Shown here piece by piece: positions 29,687 through 62,957 of a stretch of 64,000 nucleotides of DNA. The position numbers were made by a program, and so were the translations under genes. The DNA lies in NCBI GenBank assembly GCA_030834695.1, contig JAUQXK010000127.1, forward strand, positions 70,827 to 134,826. The letters run 5' to 3'. The first letter of the stretch is position 1. Every line of letters begins with the position of its first letter. Origin of the DNA: Desulfobacterales bacterium (lineage in GTDB: Bacteria > Desulfobacterota > Desulfobacteria > Desulfobacterales > SpSt-501). The notes beneath the pieces are model-generated. The model made no database searches. It saw only the letters and a list, made by a program, of their open reading frames with translations, and was not told the origin of the DNA.

Positions 29687-29795
29687 AAACCCTTAGCGTC
29701 GCTGATCCCCTGGCAAAAGACAACCGGCCGTGTTAAAAAGATCGTCGGGTTCCCGACCCCGGCGCACCGCACCCTGTCCGGCGCAAATTCTGATT

Positions 29796-45050: not shown

Positions 45051-45058
45051 AGCGCCTC

Positions 45059-45088
45059 TGTATGAATATTTGAGCATATGTTCATACA
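45059..45088. promoter_or_regulatory. ArsR/SmtB-type operator palindrome
   Basis: TGTATGAATAT-TTGAGC-ATATGTTCATACA, an imperfect 11-12-nt inverted repeat with TGAA/TTCA cores, immediately upstream of the arsR start. Confidence 0.5.
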
Positions 45089-45125
45089 TAAGGCCACCCG
45101 CAAGGGTGTCAACCCCACGCGGCGT

Positions 45126-45158
45126 TTAACCATAATCTAACCGGGTCCTAACCGTGTG
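45126..45158 (+). promoter_or_regulatory. three phased direct repeats TTAACC / CTAACC / CTAACC (11-bp period), Pho-box-like
   Basis: Hexamers start at 45126, 45137 and 45148. They are oriented toward phoB (ATG 45421). Confidence 0.5.
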
Positions 45159-45248
45159 CCAATCATAGACAAATAAATTGATCGTTGTTTGAAATACCGC
45201 TAAGCTGGTCATCGCTGTTCTGGGCGTTTTTCGCATCATGATGATTTT

Positions 45249-45368
45249 ATTGCTTCGGCAGTTAATTAGGCCAAAATTCGTCCTTCCGGCGAACCCTGGA
45301 TCAGATCCAGGGCAAGCCCCGGAATCCAGGCCGAAAGTGGATGCCGGATCAAGTCCAGCATGACGGCA
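45249..45368 (+). repeat. REP-like element, family 1 type B (degenerate)
   Basis: TTGCTTCGGCAGTTAATTAGG module ... CCCCGGAATCCAGG ... GGATGCCGGATCAAGTCCAGCATGACGGCA. Confidence 0.7.
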
Positions 45369-45420
45369 TTTGCGTATACAGCTGCCTGTACAACAATCAA
45401 CCCCGGCAGGAAGAAATCAT

Positions 45421-46113
45421 ATGGCTAAAGAGCGCATTCTGGTCGTTGACGACGAAGAAGATATCTTGGAGTTGATCCGCTTTCATCTATCGCGTGAAGG
45501 TTATCAGCTGGTGCTGGCGGCTACCGGCGAGGAAGCCCTGAAGAAGGCCGGCCGGGAGGCGTTCGACCTGGTTGTGTTGGACTTGATGCTGCCCGGCCTG
45601 GACGGGTTGGAAGTGGCCAAAGCTTTGAAGGCGGAAACCAGGACCAGGACCCTGCCGATCATCATGCTCACGGCCAAGGGCGAGGATGCGGATATCGTCA
45701 GCGGCCTGGAAATCGGGGCGGACGACTATATCACCAAACCCTTCAGCCCGCGGGTGCTGACCGCGCGCGTCAAGGCGGTGTTGCGGCGGCGTTCCCGCGC
45801 AGGGGTAGACGACACCCGGGTTATTGTGATCCACGAACTCGAGATCCATCCCGGACGCCGCACCGTGCTCGCCGGCGGCAATGCCTTGGACCTGACGTTC
45901 ACGGAGTTCCAGCTGCTTTGCGTGCTGGCGCGCCGGCCCGGCTGGGTGTTCACGCGCTCGCAGATCGTCGATGCCGTGCGCGGCAGCGACTACCCGGTCA
46001 CCGACCGCAGCGTCGATGTCCAGGTGGTCGGCCTTCGAAAAAAATTGGGAGAGCACGGGCATTACATCGAAACCGTGCGCGGGGTCGGTTATCGCTTCAG
46101 GGAAACGGCATGA
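45421..46113 (+). CDS. phoB: PhoB-type response regulator
   Basis: ILVVDDEEDI; LDLMLPGLDG; LTAKG; VRGVGYRF. Adjacent to a PAS histidine kinase and the pst genes. Confidence 0.75.
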   Translation: MAKERILVVDDEEDILELIRFHLSREGYQLVLAATGEEALKKAGREAFDLVVLDLMLPGLDGLEVAKALKAETRTRTLPIIMLTAKGEDADIVSGLEIGADDYITKPFSPRVLTARVKAVLRRRSRAGVDDTRVIVIHELEIHPGRRTVLAGGNALDLTFTEFQLLCVLARRPGWVFTRSQIVDAVRGSDYPVTDRSVDVQVVGLRKKLGEHGHYIETVRGVGYRFRETA

Positions 46114-47903
46114 AGAAGCGCAAAAAATTCATCTGGCGCCTGTTCTTCTCCTATATCTTTATTGCGATCGGCGCCCTGTTGGCGGCCGGGTGGTATTTCG
46201 TGCATTCGCTGGACGCGTTTCTCCATGACTTGGTCGTGGTCGAGCTTTCCGAACGCGCCGTTCTGCTCCAAAACCAGGTCCTTCCCCACCTGGATCCGCT
46301 GGATCCGGCGGCCGTCGACGCCATCTGCAAGCAGTCCGGCAAAGCCTCGGAAACACGCTTCACCGTCATTCTGCCCTCCGGCGCCGTCATCGGCGATACA
46401 TGGGAGAGCCCCCCAAACATGGACAACCACGGAGGCCGGCCGGAGATTGCCGGTGCCCTGGCAAGCGGCCAGGCAGCGTCGAAGCGCTTCAGCAACACTC
46501 TCCAGCAGAACGTCGTCTATGCAGCGGTTGCCGTCCGGAAGGAGTCCCGGACGATCGGCGTGGTGCGGGCGTCCATTCCGCTGGCGCGCATGGAAAAGCA
46601 GCTTGCACGAATCCGTGGCGAATTCTGGGGCATCGGCGGATTCGTGGCCCTCCTGGCGTTGGGGGTGACCTTCGCCATCTCCCGGCAATACGGCCGGAAG
46701 ATGCAGGAGCTCAAACAAAGCGCCGCACGCCTGGCCGAGGGCGAACTCGCGCACCGCCTGGCGATTCCCGATTCCGATGAGCTGGCCGGCCTGGCCGAAT
46801 CCCTGAACCGAATGGCGGCTCAGCTGGAAAACCGCATGCAAACCGTCGTCAGCCAGCGCAACCAGATGGAAGCCGTGCTTTCGAGTATGCTCGAGGGCGT
46901 CATCGCGGTCAGCCGCGACGAGCGCATCCTCAGCATCAATCAGGCCGCCGCCCGATGGTTCGAACTCGATCCTGAAAAAGTCCGCGACCGCAGCATCCCG
47001 GAAGCGATCCGCAACCTGGCCATCCAGAAGTTCGTCACGCGGTCCCTGAAAAGCCGCGCCCCGGTGGAGGACGATGTCGCGGTTTACCGCAGCGGCGAAC
47101 GCATCCTGAACATCAAGAGCGCGCCGCTGCTCGACGTGGGGCCGGAGCCGATCGGCATCCTCATCGTCTTCAGCGATGTGACCCAGCTGCGCCGCCTGGA
47201 AGACATGCGCCGGGAGTTTGTGGCCAACGTTTCCCATGAAATTAGAACCCCCCTGACGGCGATCAAGGGGTTTGTAGAAACGCTTTGCCACAACATCGTC
47301 GAAACTCCGGAGGAGGCCCGGCGGTTTCTCGGCATCATCGCCAAGCACGTGGACCGGCTGAACACCATTATCGAAGACCTGCTGATGCTCTCACGGATTG
47401 AAACCGAGGGGGAGCGCGGCGCCATCCAGCGCGAAACGACCCGTTTGCGGGACATTTTCCAGAACGCCGTGCAGATCTGCCGGCCGCAGGCCGACGAAAA
47501 ACGCATCCGGATCGAACTCGCAGGGGACGAGGGGCTTGAGGCGACGGTCGACCCGGTCCTTCTGGAACAGGCCGTCGTCAACCTCTTGGACAATGCCGTC
47601 AAGTACAGTGATTCCGAAAAAACCGTCCGGGTCCTGGCCCGAGCCGTCGACGATGAAATCCAGATCCAGGTGCAGGACCACGGGATCGGCATCGAGGAAA
47701 AGCACCGGCCGCGGCTGTTCGAGCGCTTTTACCGGGTCGACAAGGCCCGCAGCCGGGCACAGGGAGGCACGGGGCTGGGCCTGGCTATCGTCAAGCACAT
47801 CGCCCAGGCCCACGGCGGCCATGTCACGGTGGAAAGCCGGCTGGGTGAAGGCAGCCGGTTCACCATCCACCTCCCGCGCGGCCCGGAGCATGTCTCGTCT
47901 TAG
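46110..47903 (+). CDS. phoR: PhoR-type sensor histidine kinase (TM-HAMP-PAS-HisKA-HATPase)
   Basis: ATG overlaps the phoB stop (ATGA). H-box NVSHEIRTPLT. NLLDNAVKY; DHGIGI; GGTGLGLAIV. Confidence 0.75.
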   Translation: MKKRKKFIWRLFFSYIFIAIGALLAAGWYFVHSLDAFLHDLVVVELSERAVLLQNQVLPHLDPLDPAAVDAICKQSGKASETRFTVILPSGAVIGDTWESPPNMDNHGGRPEIAGALASGQAASKRFSNTLQQNVVYAAVAVRKESRTIGVVRASIPLARMEKQLARIRGEFWGIGGFVALLALGVTFAISRQYGRKMQELKQSAARLAEGELAHRLAIPDSDELAGLAESLNRMAAQLENRMQTVVSQRNQMEAVLSSMLEGVIAVSRDERILSINQAAARWFELDPEKVRDRSIPEAIRNLAIQKFVTRSLKSRAPVEDDVAVYRSGERILNIKSAPLLDVGPEPIGILIVFSDVTQLRRLEDMRREFVANVSHEIRTPLTAIKGFVETLCHNIVETPEEARRFLGIIAKHVDRLNTIIEDLLMLSRIETEGERGAIQRETTRLRDIFQNAVQICRPQADEKRIRIELAGDEGLEATVDPVLLEQAVVNLLDNAVKYSDSEKTVRVLARAVDDEIQIQVQDHGIGIEEKHRPRLFERFYRVDKARSRAQGGTGLGLAIVKHIAQAHGGHVTVESRLGEGSRFTIHLPRGPEHVSS

Positions 47904-47911
47904 GCCTGCGG

Positions 47912-49024
47912 CTAAAAACGGCAGCAGGGCTGGCAAGCACCGTATTTGGTTAGCACGATCTGCCACACCTGGTTGCTGCGCGCCCGAAATGCGCCGGCGC
48001 AGGAAAGCAGGTAGTACTCCCACATCCGCTTGAACTTCTCGTCGTATCTCACCTGGAGCCCGGGCCATGCCTTCTGGAAATTGCTGTTCCAGGCCATGAG
48101 GGTCTGGTCGTAGTGCGGCCCCAAATTGTGCCAGTCTTCCACCGCAAACAGCCCCTCGATGGATCGGCTGATCTGGGCGATGCTGGGCAGCATGCCGTTG
48201 GGGAAGATGTACTTGGTGATCCAGGGGTCGCACATGCGGGTGGATTCGTTTCCGCCGATGGTGTGCAACAAAAATATGCCGTTGTCGTTCAGGCAGCGGT
48301 GTACGACCCGCATGAACGTCCGGTAATTTTTCCATCCGACATGCTCGAACATGCCGACCGAAACGATTTTATCGAATCGCCCCTGGAGCTCCCGGTAGTC
48401 GCACTCCAGAAAGCGCACGGGCAAGCCTCTGCAGAATTCGGCGGCGTACTGGATCTGCTCGCTCGAAATGTTGACGGCGGTCACTGTGCAGCCATAGATC
48501 TCTGCCGCGTATTTCGCAAACCCTCCCCAACCGCAGCCAATGTCCAGGACGCGGTCTGTTCGGGCCAGCGCCGTTTTACGGCAGATCAGATCGAGCTTTT
48601 TCTGCTGGGCTTGGTCCAAGTCGGCGGTGCCTTCGAAGTAGGCGCAGCTATACTGGTTGTAGGAGTCGAGAAATGAAAGGAACAGGTCGTTGTCGAGCTC
48701 GTAGTGGCGTTTGGCAACGATGCGCGCGCGCGCTTTCGACTGGAGGTTCAACAGGAGGCCGGGCAGCAGCAGTGGAAGGTATTTCACCCCCCCTTTTAAA
48801 GACACATCCAGCTGCGATCTCAGGATGCGGCATATGAATTCATCCGTCCGGCTGCAGTCCCACCACCCGTCCATGTATGCTTCGCCGAGCCCCAGATTCT
48901 TCTCCCGCAGGGCGCGTGCGAAAAAGCGCTCGTCGTGGACGGTGATGTCCCAAGGGTTCGTCCCGCCGATGGCCACCCCGGCCCGGGAAAGCAGGTTTTC
49001 GACCATCTGCCGGTGACGGGTCAT
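47912..49024 (-). CDS. cfa: cyclopropane-fatty-acyl-phospholipid synthase
   Basis: HYELDNDLFLSFLD; SAM motif VLDIGCGWGG; GAAGGAGG RBS. Confidence 0.9.
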   Translation of the reverse strand: MTRHRQMVENLLSRAGVAIGGTNPWDITVHDERFFARALREKNLGLGEAYMDGWWDCSRTDEFICRILRSQLDVSLKGGVKYLPLLLPGLLLNLQSKARARIVAKRHYELDNDLFLSFLDSYNQYSCAYFEGTADLDQAQQKKLDLICRKTALARTDRVLDIGCGWGGFAKYAAEIYGCTVTAVNISSEQIQYAAEFCRGLPVRFLECDYRELQGRFDKIVSVGMFEHVGWKNYRTFMRVVHRCLNDNGIFLLHTIGGNESTRMCDPWITKYIFPNGMLPSIAQISRSIEGLFAVEDWHNLGPHYDQTLMAWNSNFQKAWPGLQVRYDEKFKRMWEYYLLSCAGAFRARSNQVWQIVLTKYGACQPCCRF

Positions 49025-49194
49025 GTGGCACCTCCTTCATTCTGCGGAACCAAAAACAATGAGGGTTCCTCCAGCAATAAGGAAAATCAGCCGTTGTTTT
49101 CAAAGTCACCGAATCGTTGAGCAGATTGCTTTCGAGGGAAGAAAGATCGTGTGTGCCGTATTATCTCGCCGAACCAACAGCAGATCAAGTGGCT

Positions 49195-50049
49195 TCAGCC
49201 GAATCGCCCGGTGATGTAATCCTGCGTCAGCTCATGGCGGGGGTTGGTGAAAATGCGCTCGGTGGGGCCGACCTCGATCAGGTCGCCCAGGTGGAAATAG
49301 GCCGTCCGCTGGGAAACCCGCGCGGCCTGCTGCATGGAGTGGGTCACGATGCAGATGGAGTACTGGCTGCGCAGCTCGAAAATGAGATCCTCGATGACCG
49401 ACGTGGCGATCGGGTCCAGGGCCGAGCAGGGTTCGTCCATCAGAATGATCTCCGGGTTCACCGCGATGGTTCGGGCAATGCAAAGCCGCTGCTGCTGGCC
49501 GCCGGACAACCCGGTCCCGGGCTGATCCATGCGATCCTTGACCTCCTCCCACAGACCGGCCTTCTTGAGGGAGGTTTCGACCATCGCATCCAGCTCCGAT
49601 TTGTCCCGAGCCATCCCGTGAATCCGCGGCCCGTAGGCCACATTTTCGTAGATGGACTTCGGAAACGGGTTGGGCTTCTGAAACACCATGCCCACTTGGG
49701 CGCGCAACGGCACCACATCGACGTCCTTGTCGTGGATGTTGACACCGTCCAGAAGAATATCGCCGGTCACCCGGCAGCCTTCAATGGTATCGTTCATGCG
49801 GTTCAGGCAGCGGATGAAGGTGGACTTGCCGCAGCCCGAAGGCCCGATCATGGCCAGCACCTCGTTGCAGCCGATGTCGATCGAGACGTTCTTGATCGCT
49901 TGCTTGTCCCCGTAGTAGACGTTGACGTTGCGGCAGACCATGCGAGGGTTCTCGACCGTGACGGTCCCGACCGTCTCGCGCTTTTCGCGGCTGACCCGCG
50001 GTCTGCCCGCGTCCGTACCGCCTTTCGCTTTTAAATGGATCTCAGTCAT
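49195..50049 (-). CDS. pstB: phosphate ABC transporter ATP-binding protein
   Basis: Walker [10 protein letters not shown]; signature LSGGQQQRL; Walker B ILMDEP. Start at an internal ATG. Confidence 0.9.
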
Positions 50050-50138
50050 CGTGCCTGCCAAGGCCGTTTCGTCCACTCGCGTCAGTGTGAGCATATCTTG
50101 TTTTCCCGGAAGTTACTAATCGGTGCAGGATAAGTAAA

Positions 50139-50210
50139 GCCCGCCTTAAAGTCGGGCAGGCCAATGATGGTTTTGGCCCGCCCGTATTGAAATAGGCGGC
50201 GACGCCTATT
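50139..50210 (-). terminator. cluster of three hairpins immediately downstream of pstS (attenuator/terminator-like)
   Basis: On the minus-strand RNA: AAUAGGCG-UCGC-CGCCUAUU (spans the stop codon), GGGCGGGCC-N12-GGCCUGCCC, and GCCCG-N9-CGGGC followed by UUUACUUAU. Confidence 0.4.
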
Positions 50211-51258
50211 TCACCTCGGTTACCGTTTTCAATGCCTTGACGTTTTCACCCACCTGTTTACGCTCGGCCTCCGGCAGCGGAATCAAGCCTTTTTCGCTGA
50301 GGTAGCCGTCCTTGCCCCAGGCCTTCTCGCTCGTGAACTCGGCCAGATACTCTTTGATGCCGGGGATCACCCCCACGTGCGCCTTCTTGACATAGAAGAA
50401 CAGCGGGCGTGACAGCGGGTATTTGCCGCTGGCGATGTTCTCGAAGCTCGGCGGGTTGCCGTCCACAAAGGAGCCCTGGATCTTGTCGGTGTTCTGATCC
50501 AGGAAACTGAATCCGAAGACACCCAGCGCGTTCGGGTTCGCCCCCAGCTTCTGAACGATGAGGTTGTCGTTCTCGCCGGCTTCGACGTAGGCCCCGTCCT
50601 CGCGGATCGATGAAAACACCTTCTGGAATTTTTTCCCGTCCTCTTTGGAGAGCTTTTTCAATCCTTCGAACTTGAGGGCGCCCGATTCCATGGCCAGCTC
50701 CACAAAGGCGTCACGGGTGCCGGAAGTCGGTGGCGGACCCAAAACCTCGATCTTGACGTCCGGAAGCGATGGGTTGACGTCTTTCCAGGTCTTATAGGGG
50801 TTGGCCACCAGGCCCTCCCCTCCCTTGGGGTCCGGCACGTCCTTGGCCAGAGCCAGGAAGATGTCCTTGGTGGTCAGCTTCAGCCCCGCCGCTTTTTGGG
50901 AGTTGGCCACCACGATGCCGTCGTAGCCGATTTTCACTTCGACGATGTCCGTCACCCCGTTCTTCTGGCAGGTTTCGAACTCGGACGCCTTGATGGCGCG
51001 CGAGGCATTCGACATGTCGGGGTGCTGAACGCCGACCCCGCCGCAGAACAGCTTGAACCCGCCGCCGGTGCCGGTGGACTCGATTTTGGGAGACTTGAAC
51101 GACCCGGCCTTGCCGAACTTCTCGGCGACCACCGTGGCAAACGGGTAAACCGTCGAGGAGCCGACGATGCTGATGCTGTCCCGCTGTTGCGCCTGAACCA
51201 TTCCCGCCGTGGCCGCAATAAGCGCAACTACTATAGATAATACAACTGCTTTCTTCAT
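50206..51258 (-). CDS. pstS: phosphate ABC transporter substrate-binding protein
   Basis: Signal peptide. IVGSSTVYPF; TGTGGG. AAGGAGG RBS. Confidence 0.85.
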   Translation of the reverse strand: MKKAVVLSIVVALIAATAGMVQAQQRDSISIVGSSTVYPFATVVAEKFGKAGSFKSPKIESTGTGGGFKLFCGGVGVQHPDMSNASRAIKASEFETCQKNGVTDIVEVKIGYDGIVVANSQKAAGLKLTTKDIFLALAKDVPDPKGGEGLVANPYKTWKDVNPSLPDVKIEVLGPPPTSGTRDAFVELAMESGALKFEGLKKLSKEDGKKFQKVFSSIREDGAYVEAGENDNLIVQKLGANPNALGVFGFSFLDQNTDKIQGSFVDGNPPSFENIASGKYPLSRPLFFYVKKAHVGVIPGIKEYLAEFTSEKAWGKDGYLSEKGLIPLPEAERKQVGENVKALKTVTEVK

Positions 51259-51333
51259 TTCATTCCTCCTTGAGTTGGATGTCCAACACCATTTTTTTAT
51301 TGTTTGCTAAAATTTAAGTCCCGATTGAGAAAT

Positions 51334-51354
51334 GGTTGTTAACTTCATATTAGG
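51334..51354 (-). promoter_or_regulatory. Pho-box-like direct repeat CCTAATATGAAGTTAACAACC
   Basis: Half-sites CTAATA and TTAACA 11 bp apart on the minus strand, about 80 nt upstream of the pstS ATG. Confidence 0.45.
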
Positions 51355-51363
51355 ATTTCATTT

Positions 51364-51389
51364 GGTAAGCCGACGCACGTCGGCTTACC
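51364..51389 (-). terminator. perfect hairpin overlapping the pstA stop codon
   Basis: GGUAAGCCGAC-GUGC-GUCGGCUUACC (11-bp stem). Weak U tract (AAAUGAAAU). Confidence 0.45.
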
Positions 51390-52680
51390 ACCGGCGTTCG
51401 AATTTTTTCCGCAGGATGATGGCCCCGGCGTTCATTACCACCAGAAACGCCAGCAGCACCATGATGGCGGCCGAGGTCCGCTCCACGAAAGCCCGCTCCG
51501 GGCTGTCCGACCACAGGTAAATCTGCACCGGCAATACCGTTGCGGAGTCCGTGAAGCCTTTGGGGATATCCACGATAAACGCCACCATGCCGATCATTAG
51601 CAGCGGCGCGCTCTCGCCCAGCGCACGCGCCATGCCGATGATGGTGCCCGTCAGCATGCCCGGCAGGGCCAGCGGCAGCACGTGGTGTACCACCATCTGC
51701 ATCTTGGAGGCGCCCACGCCCAGGGCGGCCTCGCGGATGGACGGCGGAACGGCTTTCAGCGCCGAGCGGCTGGCGATGATGATGGTGGGTAGCGTCATGA
51801 GCGTCAGCACCAGTCCTCCGACCAGCGGCGCGGAGCGCGGCAGCCCGAAAAAATTCAGGAAAACCGCGAGCCCCAGCAGCCCGAACACGATCGAGGGCAC
51901 TGCAGCCAGATTGTTGATGTTGACTTCGATCAGGTCGGTCCAACGGTTCTTCCGGGCGAATTCCTCCAGGTAAACGGCGGCGGCCACCCCGATCGGAAAC
52001 GACAGACTCAAGGTGATCAGCAGGGTGAAAAACGAGCCGGAAACCGCACCCCAGACACCGGCCAGCTCCGGTTCGCGCGAGTCGCCGGCGCTGAGAAAGG
52101 TGGTGTTGAAGCGGCGCTCCAGGCGCCCCTCGGATTCGAGCTGTTCGATCCAGGCGATCTGCTTGTCCGACACGCGCCGCTCGGCTTCGGGCAGGTCGCG
52201 CCGGAAATGGCCCTTGATGAGCATATCGACATCGTCGTCGGCCAGCAGCCAGACCTCGGCCCCCCGGCCCACCAGATCGGGGTCCTTCAACACCATGTCC
52301 CGCAATCGGTAGACGCTGCCGCTGCTCATCAGCGCCGTCAGCTGACGCTTATCCTGTCGTCCGTCCACCTGCGGAAACTTTTTGAAGAGCGCTTCGCGCA
52401 CGAGGGCGGCGTAGTCCGCGTTCACCAGAGTGTCCTGCTGGATCACCGCCGGGTCGAAAACGATCGGCAGCCGGATGGACGTTTGCCAGAATGCCGAATA
52501 GCCCTTGGCGACGATGCTGACGAAGAGCAGCGCCAGGAACATCAGGCTCAGCACGATCGCGGCCAGTCCGTAGAAGCGAAACCGCCGTTCGGCGCGGTAG
52601 CGGCGCTTGAGGCTGCGATTGACGATATCGATGGTCCGCTGGGGTTCCGGAGCGGCTGCGGTGTCGATCGGGCTATTCAT
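51385..52680 (-). CDS. pstA: phosphate ABC transporter permease PstA (long form)
   Basis: Six or more TM helices. Permease core ...REAALGVGASKMQMV... . Overlaps pstC by 8 nt. Confidence 0.85.
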   Translation of the reverse strand: MNSPIDTAAAPEPQRTIDIVNRSLKRRYRAERRFRFYGLAAIVLSLMFLALLFVSIVAKGYSAFWQTSIRLPIVFDPAVIQQDTLVNADYAALVREALFKKFPQVDGRQDKRQLTALMSSGSVYRLRDMVLKDPDLVGRGAEVWLLADDDVDMLIKGHFRRDLPEAERRVSDKQIAWIEQLESEGRLERRFNTTFLSAGDSREPELAGVWGAVSGSFFTLLITLSLSFPIGVAAAVYLEEFARKNRWTDLIEVNINNLAAVPSIVFGLLGLAVFLNFFGLPRSAPLVGGLVLTLMTLPTIIIASRSALKAVPPSIREAALGVGASKMQMVVHHVLPLALPGMLTGTIIGMARALGESAPLLMIGMVAFIVDIPKGFTDSATVLPVQIYLWSDSPERAFVERTSAAIMVLLAFLVVMNAGAIILRKKFERRW

Positions 52681-54073
52681 ACTGTTCTCGGTATTTTCGG
52701 ACGACGTACAGGGCGATCACGTTGAGGCAAAGGGTGACGATGAACAGGATCAGCCCCAGCGCGAAGGCGGCCAATGTCTTGGGGCTGTCGAATTCCTGGT
52801 CGCCGACCAGCAGGGTTACGATTTGGACGGTCACCGTGGTCACCGCTTTGAGCGGGTTGACGGTCAGGTTGGCCGAAAGCCCGGCGGCCATGACCACGAT
52901 CATGGTCTCGCCGATGGCCCGCGACACCGCCAGCAGCACCCCGCCGATGATCCCCGGGATGGCGGCCGGCACGATCACCTGGCGGATGGTCTCCGACCGG
53001 GTGGCTCCCAGGCTGTAGGCTCCGTCGCGCAGCGACTGCGGCACGGCGTTGATGAAATCGTCGGACAGCGAGGATACGAAGGGAATGATCATGATGCCCA
53101 TGACCAGTCCGGCGGCCAGCGCGCTCTCCGAGGCGACGTCCAGGCCGAGCCGGCTGCCCCAGTCGCGGATGACGGGCGCCACCGTCAGGGCCGCGAAAAA
53201 CCCGTAGACCACCGTGGGGATTCCCGCGAGCACCTCGATCAGCGGTTTGGCGACGGCCCGCAGGCGCTTGCCGGCATATTCGGACAGATAAATGGCGGAC
53301 ATCAAGCCGATCGGAACCGCCACCACCATGGCGATGGCCGAAATCAGGATCGTGCCCAGGAAGACCGGAACGGCCCCGAAGGCGCCCGAGGATCCCACCT
53401 GGTCCGCGCGGATGGCCATCTGAGGGCTCCAGTCCAGACCGAACAGGAATTGGGTGATCGGGATCACCTTGAAAAACCGGATGGCTTCGTAGAGCACGGA
53501 CAGAATGATGCCGATCGTCGTAAAGATGGCGATGGTGGAGCAGGCCACGAGAAGGACGGTTAGAATAGCCTCCACCTGGTTACGCGCCCGCAGACCGGCT
53601 GTGATCCGGCCGCGAACCAGCACGGCGATAGCGGTCAGCAAAGCGATCGAGACCGCGGCCAGCGCATGGTTGCTGATGGACCGCAGCCGGTGGTAATGGT
53701 CGGCGGCGGCCTGGATGGCGGGCTCGGCGGCCTGCGAGGCAAAGCTGCCGCTCTCGATGTTGCGGATGTCGTTGATGACGAGGTTCATCCGATCCGGGGC
53801 CAGGCTGCGGATCGCTTCGGGCAGCTCCTTCACCACCAGGTGAGTGATGACCTGGTTCTCGAAGACCAGCCAGAATCCGAAGATGAGCAGGGCCGGGATG
53901 CCGCACCAGAGAGCGGTCAGCGCGCCGTGGTAGGTCGGTCGAGAGTGCAGCTTGGCCGCCCCTTCGGCGCGGCCGGATAGAGCGAAGGCCTTGCGGCGGC
54001 CGAAATAATAGGCTGCCGTAGAAAGCCCTAAGAGTGCAATCAGCAAATAGGCCGGAGGCATTGAAAACCCCAT
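52673..54073 (-). CDS. pstC: phosphate ABC transporter permease PstC (long form)
   Basis: Permease core ...RDGAYSLGATRSETI... . Start ambiguous (54073 or 54061). The longest ORF starts at 54124. Confidence 0.85.
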   Translation of the reverse strand: MGFSMPPAYLLIALLGLSTAAYYFGRRKAFALSGRAEGAAKLHSRPTYHGALTALWCGIPALLIFGFWLVFENQVITHLVVKELPEAIRSLAPDRMNLVINDIRNIESGSFASQAAEPAIQAAADHYHRLRSISNHALAAVSIALLTAIAVLVRGRITAGLRARNQVEAILTVLLVACSTIAIFTTIGIILSVLYEAIRFFKVIPITQFLFGLDWSPQMAIRADQVGSSGAFGAVPVFLGTILISAIAMVVAVPIGLMSAIYLSEYAGKRLRAVAKPLIEVLAGIPTVVYGFFAALTVAPVIRDWGSRLGLDVASESALAAGLVMGIMIIPFVSSLSDDFINAVPQSLRDGAYSLGATRSETIRQVIVPAAIPGIIGGVLLAVSRAIGETMIVVMAAGLSANLTVNPLKAVTTVTVQIVTLLVGDQEFDSPKTLAAFALGLILFIVTLCLNVIALYVVRKYREQYE

Positions 54074-54127
54074 CCTCGATGATGGCAAGATTGATGAGAC
54101 CGTAAAACGTCGTACCGGGTGCAATCG

Positions 54128-54203
54128 GTCATTTCGACCACAGGGAGAAATCCATTTTTTAGCGCGTCGCAGCCGAAAGACTCCTCGCTTCGCTCAAAAT
54201 GAC
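54128..54203 (+). repeat. family 2 palindromic MITE-like element in the pstC leader
   Basis: GTCATTTCGACCACAGGGAGAAATC ... CTCCTCGCTTCGCTCAAAATGAC. Confidence 0.85.
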
Positions 54204-54257
54204 ATGTGAGCGTGATCTGCTACGGAGCCATCGCGATTTCGGGTAAACGTATGCGCA

Positions 54258-54278
54258 GATTGTTAGAGCCATGTTAGG
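54258..54278 (-). promoter_or_regulatory. Pho-box-like direct repeat CCTAACATGGCTCTAACAATC
   Basis: CTAACA half-sites 11 bp apart on the minus strand upstream of pstC. A third inverted copy (CTAACA at 54285-54290) forms TGTTAG-N7-CTAACA. Confidence 0.5.
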
Positions 54279-54351
54279 ATTGGGCTAACATTTTATTAAT
54301 CAGCGGCAGGGCCATGACTCCGGCCGGCCGCCTTCTGCCGCATCACTGCCT

Positions 54352-54570
54352 TCACTCATAGAAAATCTCAGGACTTGCCGACAGGAAATGCGCCTGTCGT
54401 GACATCAAGGAAAATCTCGGCGCGGCTGACTCCAGGTCCGACCGGGAGGAGGCAAAGCACAAATCACGGCCCAACGCGGAAACGTAAACGACCCGTTTGC
54501 TGCATTTCAAGCATGTGGGATTGTTCTTGTCGGATTCACCCAAGAAACACGTGCGGCAAGGACTGGTCAT
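54352..54570 (-). CDS. small CxxC...CxxC zinc-ribbon protein (72 aa), function unknown
   Basis: MTSPCRTCFLGESDKNNPTCLKCSKR... . AGGAAGGA RBS before the internal ATG. Confidence 0.45.
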   Translation of the reverse strand: MTSPCRTCFLGESDKNNPTCLKCSKRVVYVSALGRDLCFASSRSDLESAAPRFSLMSRQAHFLSASPEIFYE

Positions 54571-54718
54571 GGATTCCTTCCTTTCGTTAGGAGACACCGG
54601 TTGACAAGAAACCGGCGTGGAGCTGCCGGTTTATGGAAACGAAGGTATCCGTTGGAGGTTATGCATTGATGAGCCCGGTGTGAGAAAACCATGCCCCTTC
54701 CGCTCAGGAAACCAAGAA

Positions 54719-54757
54719 TTAACCGCTGCCTAACCCGCGCAGAACAGTCTCCTGTCA
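54719..54757 (+). promoter_or_regulatory. four phased half-sites TTAACC / CTAACC / AGAACA / CTGTCA (11-bp period), Pho-box-like
   Basis: Hexamers start at 54719, 54730, 54741 and 54752, 40-75 nt upstream of ATG 54796. Confidence 0.5.
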
Positions 54758-54795
54758 AATGGATTCGATGCTCCAATCCCAGAACCGGAGGATGG

Positions 54796-57189: not shown

Positions 57190-57193
57190 AAGA

Positions 57194-57218
57194 GGAAGGC
57201 GGAAGTTGGAAGGCGGAA
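57194..57218 (+). repeat. purine-rich tandem repeat GGAAGGCGGAA x2 in a convergent gap
   Basis: Copies at 57194-57204 and 57208-57218, plus GGAAGG at 57225. No hairpin. Confidence 0.8.
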
Positions 57219-57234
57219 ATCAAAGGAAGGAGAG

Positions 57235-58287
57235 CTAACGGCGTGAGGGAAAGTCGAAAATAGTCTGGGCCCAGGCGCGGCCAGAAAGCCTTTCAACATC
57301 CTGCCATCGGCCCGCCCCGACCCAGTCCGCGATCATGCGGGCCACGTTGGGGTATCGTACGGCCGGAACCGGCCGATCAGCCAGAAAACCACCTACCGTA
57401 TCCGCATCTAGGCGCTGCATCACGACCCCCAGTTTCAGCTCCGCGAGCGCCTTGGCGTTGGACATTTGCTCCATCTGGCGAGCCAGCGGTTTGACCAGGA
57501 TTTTCTTGCATAGATGAAGCGCTTCGCTGGCCAGCTCGAACCCCGCATTGGTGATGACTCCGCCGCTCTCGGCGAGATCCTTCAGAAAACCTTGCCGCGA
57601 GTAAGTCCGCAGATGCAGATGGCCTTCGTCACTGGCAGCGGGAAGCTGGTGATAGATATAAAACTGGTAGTTCTCGAAAGGCGCCAGCAACTGTCGAATA
57701 TCCTCAATTTCTTCGAAAGGGAGGTATACGAGGATCTTGTTCGCAAGGGCCGGGGATTCAACCGGCATGTGCATCGGTATGACCGGCGGAAGGATCGGCT
57801 GGTCGAAGTGGTGCCAATGCAGACCCAGGCAATGGTCGGCGGGAGCGAAGTGACGGATGACATATTGCGCGACCGGGTCGAACCCCGCGATGGGGATCCG
57901 GTGGCGAAACGCATATTGGTGGCCGATGCCGATGGAGGGCAGTTGGTGGCGCCGGGCGATGCGGGCGGTGACCGGCTCGAAATCGGTGATCACCACATCG
58001 ACGTCTCGGGCGTCAAAGTAGCGGATATCGGAGTAAAAACGGAGAAGATTCAGGCGGCGGGCGGTCTGGAAGTATTGCAGGCGTCCGCGCCGGGTTGAAA
58101 ACGTCAGGCCCTCCATGGCGACGAAGGGCTCGAACACCTCCATCTCCCAGAGCAACGCCGGATCCCTCCCGCTGAGCACCACCTTTACGTCATGTCCGTC
58201 GGCTTTCAGATAACGGATGATTTCCCGAGAACGGCTGATGTGGCCGTTGCCGGTGCCCTGGACCCCGTATAGAATTCGCAAGCCCAC
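57235..58287 (-). CDS. MJ1255/TIGR00661-type glycosyltransferase (GT-B)
   Basis: MGLRILYGVQGTGNGHISRSREI N-terminus characteristic of this family. Confidence 0.75.
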   Translation of the reverse strand: MGLRILYGVQGTGNGHISRSREIIRYLKADGHDVKVVLSGRDPALLWEMEVFEPFVAMEGLTFSTRRGRLQYFQTARRLNLLRFYSDIRYFDARDVDVVITDFEPVTARIARRHQLPSIGIGHQYAFRHRIPIAGFDPVAQYVIRHFAPADHCLGLHWHHFDQPILPPVIPMHMPVESPALANKILVYLPFEEIEDIRQLLAPFENYQFYIYHQLPAASDEGHLHLRTYSRQGFLKDLAESGGVITNAGFELASEALHLCKKILVKPLARQMEQMSNAKALAELKLGVVMQRLDADTVGGFLADRPVPAVRYPNVARMIADWVGAGRWQDVERLSGRAWAQTIFDFPSRR

Positions 58288-58288
58288 T

Positions 58289-58816
58289 TCAACCCGCCGC
58301 TGCGATTCCGCACAGAGCGCTCAGGGTGCCGAGACACATGCCGGCCATCACGTCGGTCGGGTAGTGGACTCCCAGGTAAATGCGCGCCACTCCCACAGCC
58401 AGCGCCCACGAACCAACGACCGGGGAAAGATAGGGGTAGCAGTTGCCGATGAGGGTGGCGACCAGAAAAGCGGCCGCCGTGTGCCCGGAAGGGAAGCTGA
58501 ATCGGTCGCTGGGCTTCACCCGGCCTTGAACACCGGCCAGGGTTTCACAGGGCCGATCGCGTTTCACGAACTGTTTGACGGTTTTGTAGACGGGCAGCTC
58601 GATCGCAAAAGCCACAGCCGCCGCCGTCCAAAACGAGCGGCCGACCGCCGGATCCACGGCCAGCAGCACCATCGCCACCAACGGATAGAGGAAGCCGTCG
58701 GCGGTCCTGGAAATTCGCGGCATGGCGGCCGTCATCAGCCGTTGGCCGTGCAGGTCGAAGATCGCGCTCAGCCATACAACATCCCAACGCGTGATTCGAG
58801 CGACGAGGGTTCGCAT
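58289..58816 (-). CDS. PAP2-family lipid phosphatase
   Basis: KxxxxxxRP (KQFVKRDRP), PSGH (SFPSGHTA) and SRxxxxxHxxxD (ARIYLGVHYPTD) motifs. Confidence 0.85.
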   Translation of the reverse strand: MRTLVARITRWDVVWLSAIFDLHGQRLMTAAMPRISRTADGFLYPLVAMVLLAVDPAVGRSFWTAAAVAFAIELPVYKTVKQFVKRDRPCETLAGVQGRVKPSDRFSFPSGHTAAAFLVATLIGNCYPYLSPVVGSWALAVGVARIYLGVHYPTDVMAGMCLGTLSALCGIAAAG

Positions 58817-58866
58817 AGGCGACTCCTTATTGGATCGGAGTCTATCCCCTCCCGGTTAAGACCGGA

Positions 58867-60735
58867 TTAGGTCCCGGTTTTTTTCCTGCTAGCGGCGAGG
58901 GGCAGCGTCATCAGGGGATGGCCGGCGGCTCGTAGGATCTGAGTCGGCGCGGGGAGCACCCGGAGCTTATCGGATGTCACGCCTTTTTGCTCGAGGTCGC
59001 GCTGAACGTCAATCGATGGAACATAAACCGCATCCACCTGGTTGTAGAACCACACCAGGTACTTCCAGCTGAGGTCCTCGATCAACCCATCCCGGGTAAG
59101 GACCCGAGCCAGGCACGCCATGGCATCGGAATAGCTGGCCTCGACGGGGAGCTTCAGCGAGCGCGCGATTAAAAGACCGGCCAGGCCGGTCGGGCCGGCG
59201 CTGGCCAGATGAAGCCGGCGAATGTCGTTCTTGAAGCAGTGATCGAACATCTCAAGAACCGGCGGGTAGACCAGGCGCTGCCCCGGCAGGTCGCTGAACT
59301 CATAAACGCCGATCGGTGTGAAGGCATGCACACCGGGATGGCCGGCGGGATCGCAGGTGAGGATGACGCCATTTTCGAGGTTCGAGACCGCTGAAGAAAA
59401 ACCGATCGCGCTCCGGCCCTCTTCAAGCGTGTCGGCAAAAATGGCGCAGGCGGTGTTCGATTCGACGCCGGGTGTCTGGCTCAGTTGCGATTGGACCGCA
59501 CGGGAGAGCTGACGCTGTGCACGGTGGTGAGCGAACCCAACGAAGTAGGGGGCCAGCAGCGTGCACAACCCTCCGGCGGAGCCGATGGTGTGAAAGATGC
59601 TGAAGAGATTCGCTCCGGAAAAATGGCCGATGAGATGGTCGGCGAACCCCAGCAACATCCGGTTGGACATCTTGTTGATGAAGTGGAACCATCGTTCCTC
59701 CAGGCGCTGGGATAGGCGATCCCCCTTCCGGGGCAGCTCGAACAGTTCGGGTTCTTCTTCGATCAGCCGGGCGGACTCCTTCTTGAGCAGGTCCACCAGC
59801 GGCCCGGGGATGCTGCCTTTGATTTTCCGCAGGCGCCGGTACTGCCATAAAAAATGCAGACGGGAAAACAGTCCGCTGTCCTCCTCGCTCGTGCAGCGCA
59901 GGCTGCGATCGACATAGCGCAGGAGGAAATCCTGAGGGACCTGCGGCCCCAGGCTCAGCTTGTGCCGGTAGAACTGGTAGGCGATGCTGTAGAGGTTGTG
60001 GGCAAGCGCCTGGGGAGACGAGGGCCTCTGGATGGTTTCTGCGCGGCCGGCCTCGATCCCGTCCAGAAATCCGTCGACCGAGCCGGCGTCCGGTACTCGG
60101 GTATAGTTGCGCGCGATGCTGAGGGAGCTGTGGTCGTCGGATCCGCCGATGAAGTGCTTGATCCAGCTCTCCGGCCAGAGCGGGGCCAGGCGCTGCTGGT
60201 TCGCCAAGCGATCAATATCACCTGGGGTCAGGCGTTTGAGAATGTTCTCCAGACAGCGGTTGCTCTCGGCGTCGCTGTCGCCGTTCAATTCGAAGATGCG
60301 GAAGAGCAGCAGCAGTTTTTCAAAATGCTGCGGTGTCAGGCGGTCATTGACGGCATAGAACGGGTGAGCGAGCGCGCAGGTGATGGCGGCCTGCTGCAGG
60401 TAGCCGACCAGGTCATAAATACTGGCTCGCAGCTTCTGGATGTCGACATGCTGAGTCTCGGTGATGCGATAGACGAGTACGTGAACCTTGCAGCCGTCCT
60501 CCGGGAAATAGGAAGTGACCTCCTCGCTGATGAAGGTCCCCGGCAAATGCGCGATTTCTAATGCGCCGTCGATTTTGTTGTGGTCCGTGATCGTGACCAG
60601 CGTCATCCCCCGCCGCCGGGCGATATGGTAGACATGCAGCGGCTCGGTAAAGCTCTCCGGGCAGCCGATTTTCTGTAGAAACCACTGAGACGGACGAGTG
60701 GAATACCTTGAGTGTACGTGCAGGTCTGCTTTCAT
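58867..60735 (-). CDS. PHP-domain phosphoesterase fused to an N-terminal half of a GT4-like glycosyltransferase
   Basis: MKADLHVHSRYS...ITDHN PHP metal-binding motifs. C-terminal AGPTGLAGLLIARSLKLPV...KLRVLP resembles a Glyco_transf_4 subdomain, and the protein ends where the catalytic C-half normally starts. Confidence 0.7.
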   Translation of the reverse strand: MKADLHVHSRYSTRPSQWFLQKIGCPESFTEPLHVYHIARRRGMTLVTITDHNKIDGALEIAHLPGTFISEEVTSYFPEDGCKVHVLVYRITETQHVDIQKLRASIYDLVGYLQQAAITCALAHPFYAVNDRLTPQHFEKLLLLFRIFELNGDSDAESNRCLENILKRLTPGDIDRLANQQRLAPLWPESWIKHFIGGSDDHSSLSIARNYTRVPDAGSVDGFLDGIEAGRAETIQRPSSPQALAHNLYSIAYQFYRHKLSLGPQVPQDFLLRYVDRSLRCTSEEDSGLFSRLHFLWQYRRLRKIKGSIPGPLVDLLKKESARLIEEEPELFELPRKGDRLSQRLEERWFHFINKMSNRMLLGFADHLIGHFSGANLFSIFHTIGSAGGLCTLLAPYFVGFAHHRAQRQLSRAVQSQLSQTPGVESNTACAIFADTLEEGRSAIGFSSAVSNLENGVILTCDPAGHPGVHAFTPIGVYEFSDLPGQRLVYPPVLEMFDHCFKNDIRRLHLASAGPTGLAGLLIARSLKLPVEASYSDAMACLARVLTRDGLIEDLSWKYLVWFYNQVDAVYVPSIDVQRDLEQKGVTSDKLRVLPAPTQILRAAGHPLMTLPLAASRKKTGT

Positions 60736-60784
60736 CGGCTTTTCGCATCCATTGGTATGAGTTGGGGGATCGGCCCGCTCGTGC

Positions 60785-62647
60785 TTAACCCGCCTCGGAT
60801 TCATCCACAGAGACACCATGCGTGGTGGCCCCGGCTCCGTGGTAGGATAGAAACGTCGCGGCGCCGGCAACGCCCATATAGCGCTGGAGGGTCTTCACAT
60901 CGGTTTGAGTCAGATCCACCACGATCAGCCCATCCATCACGCGGCCGAAGGTTCGGTCGATGTTGAACGCCAGAAGCTGCCCACCGAGGTTCAGGTAGTG
61001 GCGCAGCAAGACCGGAACGTCGCGTTGTTTGAATTCGACATCCGCAATGACCGAGCACATCTCCTTGAAATCCTGAAAACAGCTGGGGGGCGGGCTGTGA
61101 CCGCACCCCCGCACCCGAACCGGCCGGAAATTCGCCGGATGTCGCGGTCGGACCATCACGGCGAGGTCTTTGGCTTGGCTGTGCTGCAGCAACGTGGTGG
61201 CGATCAGGTGGCGCGAAAGGTCGCTGTAATCGCGGCTGATGCTGACCGGTCCGAAGAGCATGCGGTAGCGGGGATGGCGGGCGATGAAGGCCCCGATCCC
61301 CTTCCACAGCAGCAGCAACGGTGAATAGGAACGCTGGTATTCCGGGCGCACGAACGAACGCCCCATTTCCAGGGCCGGGCCGAGCCGGCGGAAAAACTCC
61401 ATGCGGCTGTCGAAAAGGGTGCTCGAATAAAGTCCGCTGCGGCCGTGGCGTTCGATGATCCGGTCGGTGGCGCCGACGCGATAGGCGCCGACGATTTCAG
61501 CCGCCTCCGCATTCCAGATGAAAAGATGCCGGTAATGCGCGTCGAACCGGTCCAGGTCCAGGGGTTTGCCGGTGCCCTCGCTGGCCGCACGGAAGGTGAG
61601 CTCCCGCAGACGTCCGATCTCCTGCATGACGAGCGGGATCTGCTCCGCGGTCGCCTGCCAGACCGACTGGACGCCGCTTTGAGCGAGGCATTGGTCGGTC
61701 GGCAGCTGCTCGATTTCTCGACGGCAGGCGTTGGTCTCCGGCGGCGTCGCCAGGGGGCGAGTTTTTCGGAAGACGGCGATGGCCGCCGGCGTGGACCCCC
61801 GTTTTTCCCGCCGGGTCGGGTGGCCCAGAAGATAGGTTCGCCAGCGCAGGTACGCCATTAAATCCTCGTCGCCGGCATAACGCTGAAGCCAACGGAATGG
61901 GATCAGGCGGCCGATGTCGACCGGAACCGTGCGGCCGCGCATGCCCATGAGCTGCCGAGCCAGCAGCGCCGTGCGCAGCCGGGGATGAATGAGCCCGGCC
62001 GCCTGAAAGCCGGGGCCGTTGTGCCCCCGGAAGAACACCGGCAGGACCGGCGCGGCGGTGCGGCGGATGAGCCGGCCGATGGTGGGGCTCCAGGGCGGAT
62101 CGGCCACCTCAAGCGGAGACATTTTTAAATGCGAAACCTCTCCGGCCGGAAAGACGAGCAGCATGCCGCCGCTTCTGAGCCAGTGCAGGGCCTCCCGCAT
62201 GGGGCCGATATTGGTACGAGCCGACCCGCTGCGGTTGAACGGATCGACCGGGATGGTCAGATCGCGCAATTGTGGAATCCGGTTCAGAAGAAGGTTCGCC
62301 ACGATTTTCACATCCGGCCGGTGGCTCAGGAGGATGTCCGCCATGATGACGCCTTCAATTCCGCCGAACGGATGATTGCCGACGACGACGGCCGCGCCCT
62401 TCTTGGGGATATTCTCCAAATCCTCCGGTTTGACCTGCGGCCGGACATCCATTTGACGCAGAGCTTCATGCATGAACGCATGCGCGCTGCCGTGCGCCTG
62501 GATCCGATCGTACAATGCCGCGCATTGCCGCAGGCCGAGGAGATGTTCCAGCGGACCGGCCACGATCTCGAAAATCTTGCGGTGCTCCTTTGGCACCGCT
62601 TTTGGAACGATTGAAAAAATAGGGTCCTCGAAAAACGCTTCTTCCAT
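60785..62647 (-). CDS. bifunctional PlsC-like O-acyltransferase + OlsB-like GNAT N-acyltransferase (OlsF-type aminolipid synthase architecture)
   Basis: N-terminal half VVGNHPFGGIEG...FPAGEVSH. C-terminal half LRELTFRAASEGTGKPLDLDRFDAHYRHLFIW...IVGAYRV. Start taken at MEEAFFEDP (GGGAGGGG RBS). Confidence 0.75.
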   Translation of the reverse strand: MEEAFFEDPIFSIVPKAVPKEHRKIFEIVAGPLEHLLGLRQCAALYDRIQAHGSAHAFMHEALRQMDVRPQVKPEDLENIPKKGAAVVVGNHPFGGIEGVIMADILLSHRPDVKIVANLLLNRIPQLRDLTIPVDPFNRSGSARTNIGPMREALHWLRSGGMLLVFPAGEVSHLKMSPLEVADPPWSPTIGRLIRRTAAPVLPVFFRGHNGPGFQAAGLIHPRLRTALLARQLMGMRGRTVPVDIGRLIPFRWLQRYAGDEDLMAYLRWRTYLLGHPTRREKRGSTPAAIAVFRKTRPLATPPETNACRREIEQLPTDQCLAQSGVQSVWQATAEQIPLVMQEIGRLRELTFRAASEGTGKPLDLDRFDAHYRHLFIWNAEAAEIVGAYRVGATDRIIERHGRSGLYSSTLFDSRMEFFRRLGPALEMGRSFVRPEYQRSYSPLLLLWKGIGAFIARHPRYRMLFGPVSISRDYSDLSRHLIATTLLQHSQAKDLAVMVRPRHPANFRPVRVRGCGHSPPPSCFQDFKEMCSVIADVEFKQRDVPVLLRHYLNLGGQLLAFNIDRTFGRVMDGLIVVDLTQTDVKTLQRYMGVAGAATFLSYHGAGATTHGVSVDESEAG

Positions 62648-62722
62648 AGCCCCTCCCGGTTTTATCGGTGCCGTACGAAGCTCTTGTTGCCGGTTTAAAA
62701 ACGCTCCGATCATAAGGTCGGC

Positions 62723-62746
62723 GATTTAGGCGGGGATTAGAGAACC
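62723..62746 (-). promoter_or_regulatory. Pho-box-like direct repeat CTCTAATCCCCGCCTAAATC followed by TATGAT
   Basis: CTAATC and CTAAAT 11 bp apart on the minus strand. A TATGAT -10-like hexamer lies 9 nt downstream. About 80 nt upstream of the proposed olsF-like start. Confidence 0.4.
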
Positions 62747-62831
62747 GCTAAAAATGAGTGAATCCAGCACGGGTCAAGGAGGAAGCGGCAGCGCTTCCTG
62801 CCAACCGGGCAAACGATCCCCTCATCCGAAA

Positions 62832-62848
62832 CTAACCCGGCTCAAACC
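62832..62848 (+). promoter_or_regulatory. weaker Pho-box-like repeat CTAACCCGGCTCAAACC
   Basis: CTAACC and CAAACC 11 bp apart, oriented toward the LysE-like and MGDG-synthase-like genes. Confidence 0.3.
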
Positions 62849-62957
62849 TGGGCGCGATAGGCATAAACGAAGCCGCTCGCCTATTTTTCCGCCGATCGTC
62901 CCTCTTTTATAGAGGTGGACTCGGGGGATATTGAAATCGACGCCCCTGGAAGGATAG

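Follow-up and report, generated by a model that had tools for sequence, protein, structure and literature searches.

Phased [C/T]TAAC[A/C] direct repeats as putative Pho boxes of a phosphate and lipid gene island in an uncultured Desulfobacterales bacterium

Introduction

It is known that Pho boxes, the operators of the phosphate-starvation regulator PhoB, vary in consensus among species (PMC4415409). Here we consider arrays of direct repeats with the core [C/T]TAAC[A/C] in a 64,000-nucleotide stretch (hereafter, the window) of contig JAUQXK010000127.1 from a Desulfobacterales bacterium, where they precede phoB, pst and a group of putative lipid genes. Judging from sequence comparisons, these arrays are, with a probability of about 0.85, Pho boxes, that is, operators for the phosphorylated PhoB encoded at 45421; every described Pho box has the architecture seen in them (PMC4415409).

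In Escherichia coli, the Pho box (CTGTCAT-N4-CTGTCAT) shares with the island arrays 11-bp direct units, two or more per promoter, and occurrence at pst and phoBR; it is placed at the -35 element, about 10 bp before the -10 hexamer, a position predicted for the island arrays as well (PMC4415409, PMC1906773). E. coli PhoB, like its island counterpart, is an OmpR-family regulator partnered with a PAS-HisKA kinase. The sequences differ: the enterobacterial consensus is not matched by the arrays, and the E. coli unit CTGTCATA and the island unit nn[C/T]TAAC[A/C] have only T4, A6 and A8 in common. The Bacillus subtilis PhoP box consists of TT(A/T/C)ACA repeats; its TTAACA-like hexamer and 11-bp phase are as in the island, at a large phylogenetic distance.

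The cyanobacterial SphR box is composed of three tandem CTTAACCT units with 3-bp linkers, and it shares with the island the 11-bp period, the presence of three or more units and a practically identical core, [C/T]TAACC (PMC1906773). Two island arrays, ahead of phoB and of the gene for a phosphoenolpyruvate-utilising enzyme (PEPut), have at least three tandem units, the TTAACC core and 3-bp linkers, and the phoB array (TTAACC/CTAACC/CTAACC) could be taken for a box of cyanobacteria. This likeness is one of sequence, not of ancestry. The island belongs to another phylum (Desulfobacterota), its pst promoters favour CTAACA, and its PhoB has not kept the E. coli contact residues, which SphR is reported to retain. 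The term non-canonical, used in the preliminary description of this locus, holds relative to E. coli only, because the core equals that of the SphR box (PMC1906773).

Within the same phylum, the box of Desulfovibrio vulgaris PhoB (DVU1083), (c/t)GT(n)AC, for example AGGTTACAGCATAGTTAC, also forms phased direct repeats upstream of pst and phoB, and has been validated by DNA affinity purification with microarray detection (DAP-chip) and by electrophoretic mobility shift assay (PMC3333781, PMC6456213). It differs in the half-site, GTTAC(A) versus CTAAC(A), and lipid-remodelling targets have not been reported for D. vulgaris. In the literature searched we found no description of a Desulfobacterales box variant.

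Under phosphate limitation, sulfate reducers swap phospholipids for ornithine lipids and glycolipids (PMC5193443, PMC11181052). Mutants of D. alaskensis G20 in olsF and agt are less fit under these conditions (PMC5193443), and Desulfatibacillum converts nearly all its phospholipids to glycolipids and aminolipids, in a study that names no genes and is silent on olsF, gene clusters, operons and promoters (PMC11181052). Pho-controlled lipid renovation, with an OlsF-type synthase and glycosyltransferases employed when phosphate is scarce, as is predicted for the island, has been described in S. meliloti, Agrobacterium, SAR11 and D. alaskensis G20 (PMC5193443). Unlike in those systems, the island genes adjoin pst and phoBR, with a candidate Pho box for each unit, and an Rph-like enzyme and a PAP2 phosphatase are included.

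Results

Arrays at eight promoters

Phased arrays are present at eight promoters in the window (numbers give the first base of each hexamer in the direction of reading).

45126..45179, plus strand: phoB promoter; TTAACC 45126, CTAACC 45137, CTAACC 45148, CCAATC 45159; -10-like TAAATT 45174-45179
51311..51353, minus strand: pstS promoter; CTAATA 51353, TTAACA 51342, TTCTCA 51331; -10-like TAAATT 51316-51311
54246..54299, minus strand: pstC promoter; TTAATA 54299, TTAGCC 54288, CTAACA 54277, CTAACA 54266; -10-like TACGTT 54251-54246
54642..54684, minus strand: promoter of a small open reading frame (ORF), weak array; CTCACA 54684, CTCATC 54673, ATAACC 54662; -10-like TACCTT 54647-54642
54719..54772, plus strand: PEPut promoter; TTAACC 54719, CTAACC 54730, AGAACA 54741, CTGTCA 54752; -10-like GATGCT 54767-54772
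58839..58870, minus strand: internal promoter of PAP2/GT1_3; CTAATC 58870, TTAACC 58859; -10-like TAGACT 58844-58839
62709..62762, minus strand: promoter of the OlsF-like operon; TTCACT 62762, TTAGCG 62751, CTAATC 62740, CTAAAT 62729; -10-like TATGAT 62714-62709
62821..62863, plus strand: promoter of LysE and the monogalactosyldiacylglycerol (MGDG) synthase; CTCATC 62821, CTAACC 62832, CAAACC 62843; -10-like TAGGCA 62858-62863

Each array consists of three or four hexamers (two at PAP2), all in exact 11-bp phase and facing the downstream gene. A -10-like hexamer (xAnnnT/A), poor at PEPut and LysE, begins 15 nt past the start of the last unit, that is, after a 9-nt gap, in all eight cases. Counted from the full unit, which starts two bases earlier, it lies at +17, which is also the spacing at E. 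coli pstS. The arrangement resembles that of promoters activated by PhoB and fits the rule that the Pho box sits 10 bp upstream of the -10 element (PMC1906773).

The arrays vary in strength: the pstC units at 54299 and 54288 are weaker than the CTAACA pair at 54277 and 54266, and the LysE array of the window has a single strong unit. The small-ORF array is a tentative PhoB target. The PEPut boxes are genuinely upstream of the gene, since its real start is the ATG at 54796 and not the ORF start at 54691, as homologues are nearly all of about 780-840 aa, the closest ones of 796-797 aa.

All six sites of the preliminary description, with their 11-bp spacing, are present in the sequence. Its coordinates are right except for the OlsF 20-mer, which occupies 62723-62742 and not 62723-62746 and is separated from TATGAT by 8 nt, not 9. 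The regulon of six units proposed there retains all its members and grows to at least eight promoters, with the addition of the weaker small-ORF site and of the PAP2 array, which had not been reported and extends over the stop codon of the GT4-domain gene upstream.

Two features adjacent to the arrays can be mentioned. A GC-rich hairpin without a U-tract (51364-51389, GGTAAGCCGACG...CGTCGGCTTACC) overlaps the pstA stop codon just ahead of the pstS box. The phoB leader (45195-45395, plus strand) contains about 190 bp without a counterpart in relatives L141, L143 and L145; this insert holds a perfect hairpin with a 9-bp stem (45294-45312), and the only copy of it found in a search is a partial one of 27 nt at 44613-44639. 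Possibly, a small repeat element has inserted in the leader.

Repeat statistics

With both strands counted, the window has 24 copies of the strict half-site YTAACM. Its pairs are found four times at exactly 11 bp (45126, 45137, 54719, 54277) and never at any other spacing from 6 to 19 bp. The relaxed form YTAAYM additionally yields pstS (51353), the new site at 58870, and 54285, a reverse reading of the upstream pstC units; all seven relaxed dimers of the window are within the Pho cluster. The plus-strand dimer at 54285 (CTAACAttttaTTAATC) was rejected as a separate PEPut-directed site, being the reverse of pstC units -1 and -2 and pointing into the 3' end of the small ORF.

One might suspect a chance clustering of AT-rich words, given that the A+T content is higher between genes than within them and that short repeats of two copies are a frequent random product. 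However, the pairs keep to the exact 11-bp spacing, and in an unbiased scan for exact 5-mer direct repeats with periods 7-16 there were six TAAC-containing repeats at period 11 and 0-1 at the others, where 300 runs of a Markov null averaged 0.07 and never exceeded 2; moreover, the sites are conserved across genomes, and unrelated intergenic regions have none. The preliminary description had also considered chance unlikely; a chance origin of the repeats is now excluded, and we give such clustering practically no weight. Eleven of the 24 strict half-sites fall within 377 bp (0.6%) of promoter DNA, the intervals having been chosen post hoc.

A position weight matrix (PWM) trained on other genomes only had its top match in the window at pstC and the second one at pstS; the LysE and small-ORF arrays were not among the top matches. 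The low scores of phoB and PEPut despite the exact core are explained by the AT-rich training relatives, which penalise GC-rich linkers and the TAACC variant. Hence, core patterns and alignments were used in place of this matrix.

Conservation in relatives

A scan of GTDB genomes based on pstC produced 80 loci. In addition, we considered metagenome loci found by OlsF (L081-L090) and loci with PEPut homologues (L139-L143, L145, L146), in all of which the whole island is kept. The nearest relatives are uncultured Desulfobacterales (L139 is labelled genus SpSt-501; DNA identity 86-89%), and the PEPut proteins of the Desulfobacterota relatives used for promoter comparison are 71-93% identical to that of the window.

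In the 80 pstC loci, dimers of the CTAACA-N5-CTAACA type occur in the pst cluster of Desulfobacterota (L001, L002, L005, L011, L026, L030), and CTGTCAT-type dimers are confined to loci of gamma- and alphaproteobacteria, with CTGTAAC hybrids in L009 and L020. In L030, the synteny of the window is retained and CTAATA/TTAACA/TTAACT precede phoB.

In the alignments, the arrays form conserved blocks amid diverged intergenic DNA, with footprints at every promoter. The phoB block, including ACAAATAAATTGAT, is kept in L141, L143 and L145 (alignment of four loci), and the pstS phase in L139, L141, L143, L145 and L146, as well as in L011 and L026 (pstS alignment, six loci). The pstC block TTAAT-n-ATGTTAGC-CAA-nn-CTAACA-n5-CTAACAAT is near-invariant in seven loci, and the array is also seen in L001, L002, L005 and L030. 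The small-ORF block GTTTTCTCAyg..GCTCATCAA..CATAAC..CGGaTACC is kept in five loci. At PEPut, units 1-3 (cTAACg-n5-CCTAACC-n5-gGAACA) are kept in eight loci, and the -10 hexamer in most relatives is GATTAT. The fourth unit, CTGTCA at 54752, counted as part of the box in the preliminary description, is not conserved and is probably coincidental. The OlsF block TCACTCATTTTTAG-n6-tCTAAY-n6-CTAAA-n9-TACAAT is kept in nine of ten loci, and the LysE side in relatives has three in-register units (CTAACC/TTAGCT/CTAACC) followed by GATAGT. Conservation of both the phase and the -10 hexamer strengthens the case for the weak sites at OlsF and LysE. The PAP2 array is present in seven of the 11 loci compared (among them L081, L084, L086, L141, L142 and L146) and absent in L139, L140, L143 and L145.

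These data bear on the possibility that PhoB operators are confined to the strong arrays (phoB, pstC, pstS, PEPut), those of LysE, the small ORF and perhaps OlsF and PAP2 being superficial look-alikes, that is, ordinary conserved promoter elements. Of strict half-sites, the window has one at LysE and none at the small ORF, these two arrays are outside the top matches of the independent PWM, and the PAP2 site is absent at four of 11 loci. On the other hand, phase, register and the -10 distance are retained in relatives, whose units are often better than those of the window (the LysE-side units given above; CTAACG/CTAAAA at OlsF), and lipid-remodelling genes are Pho-controlled in other bacteria (PMC5193443; ref. 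57 of PMC11181052). Thus, we consider so restricted a set of operators unlikely, if still deserving attention.

The relaxed dimer has 36 matches in seven syntenic loci, which total 132 kb and are about 89% coding; 35 of these matches are intergenic. The dimers face pstC, pstS, phoB, PEPut, PAP2 and the PHP-like/GT4 fusion gene (GT4L), and also two classical Pho genes, phnH (L141, L145) and phoU (L142); dimers at unrelated genes were not found in these 132 kb. In orientation, the exceptions are one plus-strand match in the L143 pstS promoter and the upstream pstC units read in reverse on the plus strand. The dimers at phnH and phoU are of the TAAC type and are located about 75-95 nt upstream (L141 2902, L145 3598, L142 12148), which widens the predicted regulon past the genes of the window. 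In several relatives there is a Pho box ahead of GT4L, often with phoH after it, both missing in the window; upstream of phoH itself, no array was found within 170 nt. The preliminary description had named two computable ways to refute its claim, namely the motif frequency in coding and unrelated intergenic DNA, and the state of orthologous promoters; the confinement of all seven window dimers to the Pho cluster, the intergenic excess in the syntenic loci and the conserved arrays came out in its favour on both.

The regulator and its recognition helix

No regulator other than the OmpR-family protein at 45421 shows consistent linkage to the island. Functionally, this protein has the make-up of a PhoB: it consists of a receiver (REC) domain and a winged helix, is co-operonic with a PhoR-type kinase and is linked to pst. 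Linkage of phoB, kinase and pst is also observed in L030, L141, L143 and L145. The kinase at 46110 matches a Firmicute-type model, passing the NCBIfam equivalog PnpS, the pneumococcal Pho kinase (410.7 bits, cutoff 400).

The protein is 46% identical to E. coli PhoB, with the recognition helix DRSVDVQVVGLRKKL versus DRTVDVHIRRLRKAL; R200-R201 are replaced by V-G, and H198 by Q. More generally, the helix is VDVQVVGLRKKL in PhoBs beside TAAC-type boxes and VDVHIRRLRKAL in those beside CTGTCA boxes. Glycine occupies the E. coli R201 position in all eight TAAC-box loci with phoB (the window, L011, L026, L030, L141, L143, L145, L131), the helix being VDVQxxGLRKKL (IDVHVTGLRKKL in L131). Approximately 35 loci with the HIRR-type helix, having arginine at this position, contain no TAAC-type dimers, and the dimers present there are of the CTGT type. 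Thus, the box type follows the recognition helix of the linked PhoB over 44 loci.

R201 is said to make a guanine contact (in the 2002 structure paper of Blanco), and the most divergent bases between the box types (TG versus C/T-C, unit positions 2-3) are presumably those that it reads in the PhoB-DNA crystal structure. The R201G substitution is suggestive as the cause of the box change, and not a proven one, because independent lineages are few and SphR reportedly has the E. coli contact residues despite its CTTAACCT box (PMC1906773). Two further searches do not discriminate: a PhoB homologue search gave only proteins at least 85% identical, hence no reading of the spread of helix variants, and in a PDB search the DNA-binding domain resembled several other OmpR-family domains about as closely as E. 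coli PhoB, so that specificity is not assignable from it.

The covariation also helps to decide whether real arrays could be bound by some other regulator, either an OmpR/winged-helix protein encoded elsewhere or a cluster-specific factor. PhoB does score under its equivalog cutoff, and the CTCAT-type units (small ORF, LysE unit 1) together with the conserved OlsF TCACTCATTTTTAG block could belong to a second factor. However, the sites are at pst and phoB itself in every relative, direct repeats in 11-bp phase are the signature of the PhoB family, the box type tracks the linked helix, and the cluster has no second regulator as a constant neighbour; we find a different binding protein quite improbable.

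Gene content of the island

The following gene layout was derived from Pfam and NCBIfam scans. The Pfam assignments confirm the gene context given in the preliminary description: phoB-phoR, pstC-A-S-B, PEPut, the OlsF-like operon and LysE/MGDG synthase. This context agrees with the core Pho regulon.

44673-45089, minus strand: arsR
45421-46113, plus strand: phoB, OmpR-family response regulator, 230 aa (Response_reg and Trans_reg_C)
46110-47903, plus strand: phoR-type histidine kinase, HAMP-PAS-HisKA-HATPase, overlapping the phoB stop codon; N-terminus MKKRKKF
47912-49024, minus strand: cyclopropane-fatty-acid synthase
49195-50094, minus strand: pstB
50206-51258, minus strand: pstS
51385-52680, minus strand: pstA
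52673-54124, minus strand: pstC
54352-54570, minus strand: conserved Cys-rich (CxxC) ORF, 72 aa
54796-57189, plus strand: PEP-utilising, Rph-like enzyme (PEPut), 797 aa
57235-58287, minus strand: GT1_3 glycosyltransferase
58289-58816, minus strand: PAP2 phosphatase
58867-60735, minus strand: PHP-like/GT4 fusion (GT4L)
60785-62647, minus strand: OlsF-like acyltransferase, ATG at 62647
62958-63587, plus strand: LysE
from 63661, cut by the window end, plus strand: MGDG-synthase gene

The gene order pstC-pstA-pstS-pstB is unusual and common to Desulfobacterota loci only. PEPut, a conserved member of the island, has the architecture of a rifampicin phosphotransferase (PPDK_N, Rph_4th PF27448 and a swivelling His domain) and is under every equivalog cutoff in the NCBIfam scan. 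The 72-aa protein between pstC and PEPut (MTSPCRTC...CLKCSKRVVYV...) has two CxxC pairs, is 70-89% identical in four relatives, and matched no Pfam or NCBIfam family. The N-terminus of GT4L is a CehA/McbA-like (PHP) metallohydrolase region. The OlsF-like protein combines Acyltransferase and Acetyltransf_5 domains in the layout of an N-terminal O-acyltransferase and a C-terminal N-acyltransferase; its best match is OlsF NF052615, at 398.9 bits versus the cutoff of 620, and hence its amino-acid substrate is uncertain.

A generic scan for sigma-70 promoters and terminators revealed no enrichment; its sole match near the sites is the sigma-70-like minus-strand TTGGCA-17-TAGATT (45134-45162), which overlaps the phoB boxes and is possibly the arsR promoter. 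The arsR start carries a palindrome similar to an ArsR operator (TGAATATTTGAGCATATGTTCATA, 45062-45089). An orphan intergenic dimer, TTAACCgtctcATAACA (44548-44564, plus strand), is situated downstream of arsR, with no plus-strand gene for about 870 nt after it. The Rfam scan of the whole window gave nothing at the gathering score. The G+C content dips to 0.52 at 28001-30000, compared with about 0.61 elsewhere in the window.

Discussion

Several observations weigh against the assignment of the arrays to PhoB, or against its reach. The best NCBIfam match of the regulator, TIGR02154 PhoB, scores 237.9 bits, under the equivalog cutoff of 296.2. The covariation of helix and box comprises few independent lineages, and SphR reportedly binds CTTAACCT even though its DNA-contact residues are those of E. 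coli PhoB (PMC1906773), therefore R201G is not the whole cause of the change in specificity. The PAP2 site is missing from the two closest relatives, L139 and L140, GATGCT at PEPut and TAGGCA at LysE make poor -10-like hexamers, and strict half-sites are scarce in the window copies of the LysE, small-ORF and OlsF arrays. Finally, the RNA-labelled public runs with window DNA (X3, X4, X17) have flat, undirected contig depth, and neither transcript ends nor expression are readable from them.

With these points taken into account, the computation still supports the Pho-box interpretation of the preliminary description. The unit would be an 11-bp repeat, nn-[C/T]TAAC[A/C]-nnn, which would accommodate one winged-helix domain, the domains being arranged head to tail on two to four units in phase per promoter. 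As the last unit, 15 nt before the -10-like hexamer, would take the place of the -35 element, phosphorylated PhoB would recruit sigma-70 RNA polymerase. The sequences themselves establish the sites, their 11-bp phase and orientation, how rare they are elsewhere, how well they are conserved, and the way they co-vary with the PhoB recognition helix; we infer PhoB binding, the assignment of the -10 hexamers, activation rather than repression, and induction by phosphate limitation. Low phosphate would be sensed by PhoR, phoBR would be autoregulated through its own boxes, and pstS (with pstB) would be expressed from its own promoter, apart from pstCA.

The local regulon would then comprise phoBR, pstCA, pstS(B), the Rph-like enzyme, the OlsF-like/GT4 operon, PAP2 with GT1_3, LysE with the MGDG synthase and, possibly, the small CxxC protein. 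It would cover both high-affinity phosphate uptake and the replacement of phospholipids by ornithine lipids and glycolipids. To our knowledge, the Rph-like phosphotransferase, the PHP-GT4 fusion, the PAP2 phosphatase and the small CxxC protein have no known role in the Pho response. The arrays are real and most probably represent a lineage-specific operator of a well-known class, with a coherent and partly unexpected regulon, and not a new kind of system.

It is conceivable, although we hold this as a tentative proposal with slightly less than even chances, that PhoBs of the Gly type (VDVQxxGLRKKL) in Desulfobacterales and Desulfobulbales constitute a distinct specificity class, whose operator has been rewritten from CTGT to C/T-TAAC and whose regulon is a compact phosphate-starvation island with genes for the phosphorus-free lipids of the order. 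In any case, the covariation of helix and box provides a natural test case for the evolution of PhoB specificity.

The operator model, nn[C/T]TAAC[A/C] in 11-bp phase with the -10 hexamer at +15, is usable for prediction of Pho regulons in uncultured Desulfobacterota, abundant members of sediment and bioreactor communities. It would tie the OlsF-like, GT4-fusion, PAP2, GT1_3, MGDG-synthase, LysE and Rph-like genes to phosphate starvation, and is useful both for annotation and as a lead to lipid-remodelling genes. Most probably, as far as can be judged from the genomes, a single starvation regulon joins phosphate uptake and genes for phosphorus-free membrane lipids in this uncultured lineage of sulfate reducers.

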